Of a stretch of 64,000 nucleotides of DNA, positions 6,703-9,700 are shown one piece after another; position 1 is the first letter of the stretch, and every line of letters begins with the position of its first letter. Where the stretch lies: the NCBI RefSeq assembly GCF_054482595.1, contig NZ_CM137008.1. The stretch is one strand, 5' to 3'. Position numbers: made by a program.

Positions 6703-9700
6703 TAACTGTCAGACCAAGTTTACTCATATATACTTTAGATTGATTTAAAACTTCATTTTTAATTTAAAAGGATCTAGGTGAAGATCCTTTTTGATAATCT
6801 CATGACCAAAATCCCTTAACGTGAGTTTTCGTTCCACTGAGCGTCAGACCCCTGAGAGCAGAGATAGCGCTGATGTCCGGCGGTGCTTTTGCCGTTACGC
6901 ACCACCCCGTCAGTAGCTGAACAGGAGGGACAGCTGATAGAAACAGAAGCCACTGGAGCACCTCAAAAACACCATCATACACTAAATCAGTAAGTTGGCA
7001 GCATCACCAGACTCAGGATAGCCAATTTTCTACATTGGGGAAAAAGAATGGGCAAATGAAGTCTATTGACAACAAATCATCTCTCCAGGTTGACAGGAAT
7101 CCCTCTCTTTCTTTGCAAACAAATGGAACAGAACAATTTTCTACAAAGAAAATTCTCAATATGACTTCACGAGATCAGGGGAGTAACTCTGAACTATCTA
7201 ATAAAACGATACAATTTAAGGAAAAAATCCATAATGGTATCAATACAGAATACATCACAGATCAAAAACACAGTAATAATAAAGATCGTGAAAAAAAATA
7301 CCGCGATGGAGACAAAATAAATGGACAGCAGGCTCATTCATTAGACAGTACTAACGAAAGAAGGTTTGCTGATAACAGAACCATGTTTACTCAACATATC
7401 GAAAAGCAAAGGAATGTTCATACGCTCAATCAGAATGATATAAATAATTCTGTTAATAGTGTCAATGTGCCCGAAAATGAATTGACATATCAGTTTCAGC
7501 GTTGGGGACAGAATCATACAGTCCGGATTCTGGAAAGTAGTGAAGGGATACGACTAAAACCATCGGACGCGCTTGTCTCCGACAGACTCCATGAAGCCCA
7601 AAACAATGATGTTACAGCACAACGTTGGGTATTGACTGAACAAGATGAACGACAAGGACAACGACATCAGCCTCATGAGGAGCAAGAAAATGAAGGCAAA
7701 TTCGAAAACGATCAGAAGGATGAAAGTTAATGTTCGGTCTGAGGAAGGTAAATCGAAACACTCATACGTTTGAAACCACTTTTCAAAATTGGAAAGAAAA
7801 TGGCGAAGATGTTGCATTATTAATGCCCGAATTTAGTGCTAAATGGCTACCGATAGCAGAAGAGAGTGGCAGCTGGTCTGGATGGGTGTTGCTTCGAGAA
7901 ATATTTCCCTTAATTTCTGCCGAACTCGCTGGGATGGCTTTAATGCCAGAAACGGAAAGGTTAATAGGCGAATGGCTCAGTTTATCCAGTTCGCCGTTAA
8001 ATCTAAAGTATCCTGAACTAAAATATAATCGTTTGTGCGTAGGTAAAGTATTTGATGGAGTATTGAGTCCAGCTCAACCACTGATAAGAATATGGACAGG
8101 GGAATTGAATCTTTGGTTAGATAAAGTCACTGTCTGCCAATACGAAAATACCCCAACATTAGACAAAAAATCATTATATTGGTCCATTCATTTTGTAATT
8201 GGATTTAGTAAAACATGTTACAGAAGTCTTGTTGATATTGAAGTTGGCGATGTTTTATTAATCTCAAATAATTTGGCTTATGCGGTTATTTATAATACAA
8301 AAATTTGTGATTTAATTTATCCAGAGGAGTTAAAAATGGCTGATCATTTTGAGTACGAGGAAGATTTTGAAACAGATGATTTTGATATCAAAAAAAGCGA
8401 GAGTGAGATTTATGATGAAAATGACGAACAGATGATTAATAGTTTTGAAGACTTGCCTGTAAAAATTGAGTTTGTTCTTGGTAAGAAAATAATGAATCTA
8501 TATGAAATAGACGAACTCTGTGCAAAAAGAATAATATCTCTGCTTCCAGAATCAGAGAAAAATATAGAGATACGTGTAAATGGCGCGCTAACTGGCTATG
8601 GCGAACTTGTTGAAGTGGATGATAAATTGGGCGTAGAAATTCATTCTTGGTTATCAAGGAATAATAATGTCAAATAGCATTTCGCTGATAGCGATATTAT
8701 CATTATTTACACTATTGCCGTTTATAATAGCATCCGGGACATGTTTTATTAAATTCTCAATTGTTTTTGTTATTGTCCGAAACGCGCTGGGACTTCAGCA
8801 AGTGCCATCAAATATGACACTTAATGGGGTTGCTTTGCTTTTGTCAATGTTCGTAATGATGCCGGTTGGGAAGGAAATATATAATAACAGTCAGAATGAG
8901 AATCTTTCATTCAATAATGTAGCGTCGGTTGTTAATTTTGTTGAGACAGGCATGAGTGGTTATAAATCATATTTGATAAAATATTCTGAACCTGAGTTGG
9001 TTAGCTTTTTTGAAAAGATTCAGAAGGTGAATAGTTCTGAAGACAATGAAGAGATAATCGATGATGATAATATTTCAATTTTCTCGTTACTGCCCGCATA
9101 TGCATTGAGTGAGATAAAAAGTGCATTTATTATAGGTTTTTATATCTATTTACCCTTTGTCGTAGTGGATCTGGTTATATCCAGCGTTCTGTTAACGTTA
9201 GGTATGATGATGATGAGCCCGGTAACCATATCTACACCGATAAAATTAATTCTATTTGTCGCTATGGACGGTTGGACAATGTTATCAAAAGGACTCATTT
9301 TACAATATTTTGACCTATCCATTAATCCCTGAGGAAAAAATATGGACGATATTGTTTTTGCAGGGAATAGGGCGCTGTATCTGATTTTAGTTATGTCTGC
9401 AGGACCTATCGCAGTTGCGACATTTGTTGGTTTATTAGTAGGGCTTTTTCAAACGGTAACACAGTTGCAAGAACAGACGTTGCCATTTGGCGTGAAATTA
9501 TTATGCGTAAGTATTTGCTTTTTTTTAATGAGCGGATGGTATGGCGAAAAATTATATTCTTTTGGTATTGAAATGCTGAATTTAGCATTCGCGAGAGGAT
9601 AGCATGGGGGAGGCGATACTCTATCAGTTACATAGTCTGCTGGCTGCTACAGCGCTCGGTTTTTGCCGATTGGCACCCACTTTCTATTTGTTACCATTTT

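Follow-up and report, generated by a model that had tools for sequence, protein, structure and literature searches.

How did the end of a resistance transposon, a piece of an insertion sequence and a headless type III secretion gene come to lie side by side on a chromosome? The question is raised by positions 6815-7056 of a 64,000-nucleotide stretch of contig NZ_CM137008.1 (assembly GCF_054482595.1), hereafter the window. There a 38-bp inverted repeat of the Tn3 family, the end of a Tn2 remnant carrying blaTEM-1, is joined to an internal position of IS1, and the tip of the IS1 abuts eivJ, a gene of ETT2, type III secretion system 2 in Escherichia coli. A first-pass annotation made from the window had explained this as a Tn2 insertion into an IS1 copy, followed by loss of the rest of both elements and perhaps of the 5' end of eivJ. 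Comparison with complete genomes favors another reading, to which we give a probability of roughly 0.85: the locus is the right boundary of a plasmid-derived, IS1-bounded, Tn2670-like multidrug-resistance unit, which entered eivJ, an ETT2 gene of the chromosome, by transposition.

The junction as read in the window is sharp. The 38-bp repeat occupies exactly 6815-6852, ending where it had been placed, reads CTTAACGTGAGTTTTCGTTCCACTGAGCGTCAGACCCC, and is the exact reverse complement of the terminal repeat of the Tn1/Tn2/Tn3 group, GGGGTCTGACGCTCAGTGGAACGAAAACTCACGTTAAG. It is followed directly by nt 1-156 of IS1 on the minus strand (6853..7008), a fragment that covers the left inverted repeat together with the insA promoter and ~33 codons from the start of insA. 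The starting point inside IS1, estimated earlier at about 156 bp, is exactly 156; the fragment, including the terminal repeat GGTGATGCTGCCAACTTACTGAT, is identical at 156/156 positions to the end of a complete 768-bp IS1 found elsewhere in the window (18271-19038). An uninterrupted IS1 around the Tn2 target reads ...GCTCTCACTGCC..., and the TGAGA at 6853..6857 (IS1 nt 156-152) is the right copy of a 5-bp Tn2 target duplication. At this locus IS1 is represented by nt 1-156 only, not by a complete element with insA and insB, and the Prokaryotic Genome Annotation Pipeline (PGAP) labels it an IS1 transposase fragment without its C-terminus. That the two sequences were joined by chance is excluded by 100% identity to the IncFII plasmid pE2855-3 and, over positions 6700-7800, to four independently assembled complete E. 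coli chromosomes, those of XH990, Santai, SM107 and W619.

The complete structure is preserved in XH990. On its left side eivF, eivG, eivE, eivA, eivC and eivI are followed by eivJ codons 1-54 and then by a complete IS1. Then come a Tn21-type intI1-dfrA12-aadA2-qacEΔ1-sul1 array, chrA, IS6100, mph(A), IS26 and merEDACPTR. The mer genes are followed by IS1 nt 768-152 and by the opposite 38-bp repeat of Tn2, at which 253 bp of the transposon, a 186-nt tnpA fragment among them, are kept; next are IS26, aac(3)-IId, a further IS26, several open reading frames (ORFs), ISCfr1 and the 1.2-kb bla end of Tn2. The right end consists of IS1 nt 156-1 and eivJ from codon 52. The entire IS1-bounded unit measures 28,509 bp (L003 18068-46576), and its two IS1 copies are in direct orientation and identical over the 617 bp that they share.

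Two target duplications are found in this structure, one inside the other. The inner one is TGAGA (IS1 nt 152-156), which lies on both sides of the 8.8-kb Tn2-bounded segment (left copy at L003 37573-37577; the window holds the right copy only). The repeat at 6815-6852 is the exact reverse complement of the opposite end of this segment (L003 37578-37615), and IS1 nt 152-768 adjoins that opposite repeat in both XH990 and W619, ~9 kb upstream of the right junction. A duplication of 5 bp is what the Tn3 family generates, and TGAGA reads as the signature of a Tn3-family transposition into IS1. Thus Tn2 transposed into an IS1 that survives in two pieces, and the insertion of Tn2 into IS1 first proposed from the window is borne out by the complementary junction, with TGAGA on both sides, in XH990 and W619. 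The further proposal that the rest of both elements was lost stood in part. It does not apply to IS1, whose nt 152-768 are kept in these two genomes; for Tn2 the interior (tnpA, tnpR) is almost all replaced, but both ends are present and bracket 8.8 kb.

The outer duplication is the 9-bp sequence AGACTCAGG, found at both outer ends of the XH990 unit. Its left copy (L003 18059-18067) sits directly before the right inverted repeat of the left IS1, and its right copy, present in the window at 7009..7017, falls in eivJ codons 52-55. The empty site is seen in THO-010, a chromosome that is 100% identical to window positions 7008-13800 and has no mobile element in eivJ; it reads ...TTACGTCAGACTCAGGATAGCC..., with a single copy of AGACTCAGG. 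TUM18780 too is among the empty-site relatives. The duplication is within the 8-9 bp generated by IS1 and reads as the signature of an IS1 transposition into eivJ; eivJ was thus interrupted by insertion. With two direct IS1 copies, resistance genes between them and one outer duplication, the XH990 unit has the make-up of a composite transposon, and the IS1 and Tn2 pieces are one nested structure, not two independent remnants.

The part of eivJ left in the window consists of codons 52/53-291 and the stop codon (7009..7730, + strand), 100% identical to the eivJ region of THO-010. The IS1 tip (…GGCAGCATCACC) is at 7008 and a TTG is at 7035, with 26 bp between them; this spacing, and the TTG as first in-frame start, had been given correctly. 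No ATG, GTG or TTG in the eivJ frame occurs between the upstream stop, located inside IS1, and 7035, and the frame stays open and start-free for 33 codons back into IS1. In THO-010 the frame runs upstream to an ATG and encodes a 291-aa protein, MDEVKKIEHC…LLRQTQDSQFSTLGKK…, of which TTG 7035 is Leu61 and the next in-frame start, ATG 7056, is Met68. A database search for EivJ homologues returned 17 clusters of 291 aa (87-100% identity) and one of 290 aa (82%), all beginning MDEVKK, 51 residues upstream of the breakpoint. Full-length alignment with intact EivJ, which the first-pass annotation had named as the result that would overturn a truncation, fails: the window frame starts at residue 52, and residues 1-51 are absent. 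The gene is thus truly truncated, its first 51 codons cut off.

InvJ and SpaN are needle-length regulators of the SctP type. The window version of EivJ has the SPAN domain (PF02510) in common with them, at residues 146-219 of the 231-aa ORF (206-279 of the full-length protein; E = 1.6e-22), and lacks the first 51 residues and with them the native N-terminus of SpaN/InvJ/EivJ. Similarity to the Salmonella SpaN model is limited to the C-terminal 80 residues. The N-terminal residues of InvJ carry a secretion signal, and by analogy the lost residues 1-51 of EivJ would include one. Having lost the native start codon, its ribosome-binding context and the first 51 residues, the remnant is presumably inactive, and the 231-aa "EivJ" ORF should be annotated as the 3' fragment of an island-split gene, not as a TTG-start protein.

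The proposal that this ORF is nevertheless a complete and functional short EivJ, read from TTG 7035 with the junction merely upstream, is almost certainly wrong. The ORF is open, its C-terminal SPAN domain is kept, and PGAP annotates only C-terminal eivJ pieces as proteins. However, the homologue clusters, all 290-291 aa long and all starting from MDEVKK, refute it by alignment, and the identical THO-010 chromosome, continuing in frame to the upstream ATG, makes the TTG an ordinary leucine codon. Improbable as well is the first-pass account taken whole, in which Tn2 entered IS1, the remainder of both was lost, and the 5' end and promoter of eivJ were deleted, not displaced. Within the window neither another Tn2 repeat nor an IS1(157-768) fragment adjoins the region, most of Tn2 (tnpA, tnpR) is missing, and in W619 and SM107 everything from eivF through 5' eivJ is gone after IS1-mediated deletion or inversion, all in keeping with such losses. 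But the junction of IS1(152-768) with the Tn2 repeat and its 5-bp duplication are retained in XH990 and W619; XH990 also retains 5' eivJ and all the upstream eiv genes, with the 9-bp duplication marking the insertion; and the upstream losses are later and different in each strain. Removal of the 5' end of eivJ is therefore true of W619 and SM107, by later IS1-mediated deletion, but not of XH990, where it was displaced 28.5 kb by the insertion.

A possible but unlikely course of events is that a lone IS1 transposed into eivJ, leaving the 9-bp duplication, and that the resistance region came later, when this IS1 recombined homologously with IS1 copies or fragments carried by an IncF plasmid or a circular intermediate. 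The outcome would look the same, 9-bp duplication included. The flanking IS1 sequences of XH990 are identical to each other, Tn2670-derived regions have been reported to move by homologous recombination (PMC8765060), and IS1 is abundant in these chromosomes, where IS1-containing queries match at a median of 10-11 places per genome. On the other hand no genome was found in which an IS1 stands alone at this precise position, and the right-side crossover would need to fall in just 156 bp of homology. GF66.1, considered as a lone-IS1 precursor, was rejected; it shares the left junction, but on the right its eivJ resumes only ~180 bp further in, which makes it a deletion derivative. Transposition of the entire unit into eivJ remains the preferred reading, and several points weigh against it. 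Since a single IS1 insertion with later recombination with a plasmid could give the same end state, whole-unit transposition is not proven. Both junctions with the 9-bp duplication are kept in one genome only, XH990. The left boundary, the other IS1 piece and 5' eivJ are taken from relatives and not seen directly in the window, no matching genome sharing the window's extra IS1 or its IS6100/IS26 junction. ETT2 may or may not have functioned in this lineage before the insertion; PGAP flags epaO as frameshifted in uninterrupted relatives, although the ORF covers the whole family model. The consequences for transcription and EivJ function are deduced from sequence.

Under this preferred reading, the sequence shows the following steps. 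On a plasmid, a Tn2 with blaTEM-1 entered an IS1 adjoining the mer end of Tn21, duplicating IS1 nt 152-156 (TGAGA) and splitting the IS1 into parts of 617 bp and 156 bp. Material of IS26, aac(3)-IId and ISCfr1 later took the place of the Tn2 interior, and what remains of Tn2 is 253 bp on one side and 1.2 kb on the bla side. The unit, from the right repeat of the intact IS1 to the left repeat on the 156-bp fragment, is inserted in eivJ codons 52-55, with the 9-bp duplication. IS1 and IS26 were active again afterwards and altered or removed parts of the island and of the ETT2 DNA beside it, in a different way in each relative.

The plasmid side of this history is well populated. At least 360 PLSDB plasmids, distributed over Escherichia, Klebsiella, Salmonella, Shigella and other genera, have the junction of the Tn2 repeat with IS1 nt 156, as do 484 records from 475 of the 5,426 complete E. 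coli genomes. Window positions 271-7008 are found in E. coli plasmids as one 99.9% piece, and 5653-7008 are 100% identical over 1,356 bp to pE2855-3, which has a tnpR fragment upstream of blaTEM-1. Many large Klebsiella, Salmonella and E. coli plasmids match positions 271-6863, ending 11 bp into the IS1 fragment; this suggests the same Tn2::IS1 junction ancestry, a different event having afterwards truncated the IS1 at that point. A literature phrase search for Tn2 inserted in IS1 gave no match.

The junction with eivJ is rare. Among the 5,426 complete genomes the right IS1::eivJ junction is present in four and the left in three, XH990 being in both sets. The two junction sequences are practical markers: IS1::eivJ at AGACTCAGG marks a small E. 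coli lineage with a chromosomal multidrug-resistance region, including isolates of sequence type (ST) 1011 that came, mainly in China, from people, pigs, poultry and ducks. SM107 belongs to ST1011, phylogroup E (PMC13048076). The paper describing it lists chromosomal blaTEM-1B among its genes and is silent on the location of the chromosomal island (PMC13048076).

The structure is a well-known kind of mobile-element mosaic, present in hundreds of public sequences, and involves no new biology or mechanism. The same junction, with the bla-side repeat joined to IS1 nt 156, occurs where Tn2 lies in the IS1 flanking Tn21/Tn2670-derived regions of IncF plasmids; the present copy differs in being chromosomal and in that its IS1 tip abuts eivJ instead of plasmid backbone (the GmrSD gene in pE2855-3). 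Tn2670 of NR1/R100 is described as having IS1 at both ends and as the source from which resistance regions with blaTEM-1 on F-type plasmids derive (PMC8765060). Like Tn2670 (IS1, catA1, Tn21, IS1), the unit has a direct IS1 pair around a Tn21-type integron and mer, and a 9-bp duplication; catA1 and a GNAT gene adjoin the left IS1 in APEC37, W619 and SM107. Unlike Tn2670, its right IS1 is split by the 8.8-kb Tn2-derived segment, its cassettes are dfrA12-aadA2, chrA, IS6100, mph(A) and several IS26 have been added, and catA1 and the Tn21 tnpA/tnpR are missing from XH990. ETT2 is likewise known for inactivation by insertion and deletion, and the order eivF...eivJ-epaOPQRS fits published maps (PMC6030553; PMC11068852). 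The lesion here however is a 28.5-kb antibiotic-resistance transposon, as against the point frameshifts or large deletions of the reviews, and a term search of PMC6030553 and PMC11068852 returned no resistance island or IS1 in eivJ.

The relatives illustrate the speed at which IS1 and IS26 rebuild an island of this kind, whose arrangement is different in every genome examined. In W619 the DNA from an upstream AIPR gene through 5' eivJ has been lost beside the left IS1. In SM107 an IS1 inversion and deletion removed eivF through 5' eivJ, and the integron is inverted between IS26 copies. From APEC37 the right half of the island has disappeared, and with it the remainder of ETT2 as far as araE, beside IS26, and GF66.1 has lost the whole island together with ~180 bp of eivJ, beside the left IS1. 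Santai carries F-plasmid tra genes inside the island. In APEC37, W619 and SM107, Tn21-type tnpA/tnpR follow the left IS1 along with catA1 and the GNAT gene. Matches of the ECONIH4 type (H5-H14, 86% of the query) were tried as further examples of the same IS1 site and rejected, because they have a different IS1, inside epaO, with a deletion to eprK. IS1 has thus eroded ETT2 independently more than once. ECONIH4 (L004 5008-5775) and the similar genomes H5-H14 have several other ETT2 pseudogenes too.

Downstream of the junction epaO (7730-8677), epaP (8667-9332), epaQ (9342-9602), epaR (9604-10371) and epaS (10380-11492) follow on the + strand, assigned from their ORFs and the annotation of relatives, and all the ORFs from epaO to epaS (7730-11492) are intact. 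The epaOPQRS genes are separated from the upstream eiv genes: they are 28.5 kb apart in XH990, and a deletion intervenes in some relatives. The five genes are presumably severed also from whatever promoter serves them. The + strand has no promoter-like site from 6734 to 7800, and the promoter-like site on the minus strand at 7001-6974, the IS1 insA promoter, is directed away from eivJ. A hybrid outward promoter at the IS1 end was considered and rejected; there is no + strand site, and TTGGCA at 6995-7000 has, by eye, no acceptable -10 element at 16-18 nt. With the insA promoter pointing away from eivJ and a terminator-like hairpin 3' of blaTEM-1 (6766-6791; a 10-bp stem, then a U run), transcription of epaOPQRS from the IS1/bla side is likely to be weak blaTEM read-through past the hairpin at most. 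It is very improbable that read-through from the blaTEM-1 promoter, or an unrecognised promoter in the IS1 fragment, drives truncated eivJ and epaOPQRS, coupling half of the ETT2 export apparatus to a resistance gene, and that an altered or dominant-negative EivJ minus its first 60-67 residues was selected in the ST1011-related lineage.

In uninserted genomes (THO-010, A30) PGAP calls epaO (7690-8677) "frameshifted" and splits eivJ (L001 5848-6723) into a pseudogene piece and a 115-aa protein. These lesions look like annotation artefacts, since the 315-aa EpaO ORF covers positions 3-303 of the 303 in model NF006018, the epaO flag is present in all lineages examined, and the 291-aa EivJ ORF is open.

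On the other side of the junction, the right-hand Tn2 remnant (5653..6852, + strand) consists of the bla promoter region, blaTEM-1 (5845-6705, + strand), the hairpin and the 38-bp repeat; the repeat lies 110 bp beyond the blaTEM-1 stop codon. No second copy of the repeat occurs in the window with up to six mismatches allowed, and of a complete autonomous Tn3-family element with tnpA, tnpR and res only these 1.2 kb are left. The Tn2 piece is thus a remnant and no functional transposon. Its assignment to Tn2, and not to Tn1 or Tn3, is tentative; the window bla differs from the bla of pBR322 (Tn3) at sites typical of TEM-1b. Upstream of the remnant is ISCfr1 (IS1182 family; 3573..5189, + strand), bounded by perfect 25-nt inverted repeats (3573-3597 and 5165-5189), with a transposase ORF at 3627-5024, and annotated as ISCfr1 in relatives. 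About 460 bp at 5190-5652, between the right repeat of ISCfr1 and the point where Tn2 resumes (5653), match neither element, so that ISCfr1 itself is not the Tn2 breakpoint.

The complete IS1 at 18271-19038 lies on the same strand as the fragment, between a ygeI-like gene and ygeH, and has an 8-bp target duplication, CAAAATGT, at its ends. This IS1 and the island-bounding IS1 copies of XH990 disagree at 8 positions, and it is absent from XH990, Santai, SM107, W619 and THO-010. At the left end of the window a fragment of IS6100 (1..270), 100% identical to pE2855-3 and 99.6% to the IS6100 of XH990, in inverted orientation, abuts an 820-bp IS26 (271..1090, + strand; transposase ORF 316/334-1038) that is 100% identical to the IS26 copies of XH990. 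In the search of the 5,426 E. coli genomes this IS6100/IS26 arrangement was found in none of the four matching complete genomes. Together with the extra IS1 it makes the window a further variant of the island, the IS6100/IS26 arrangement being probably the product of an IS26-mediated inversion or deletion.

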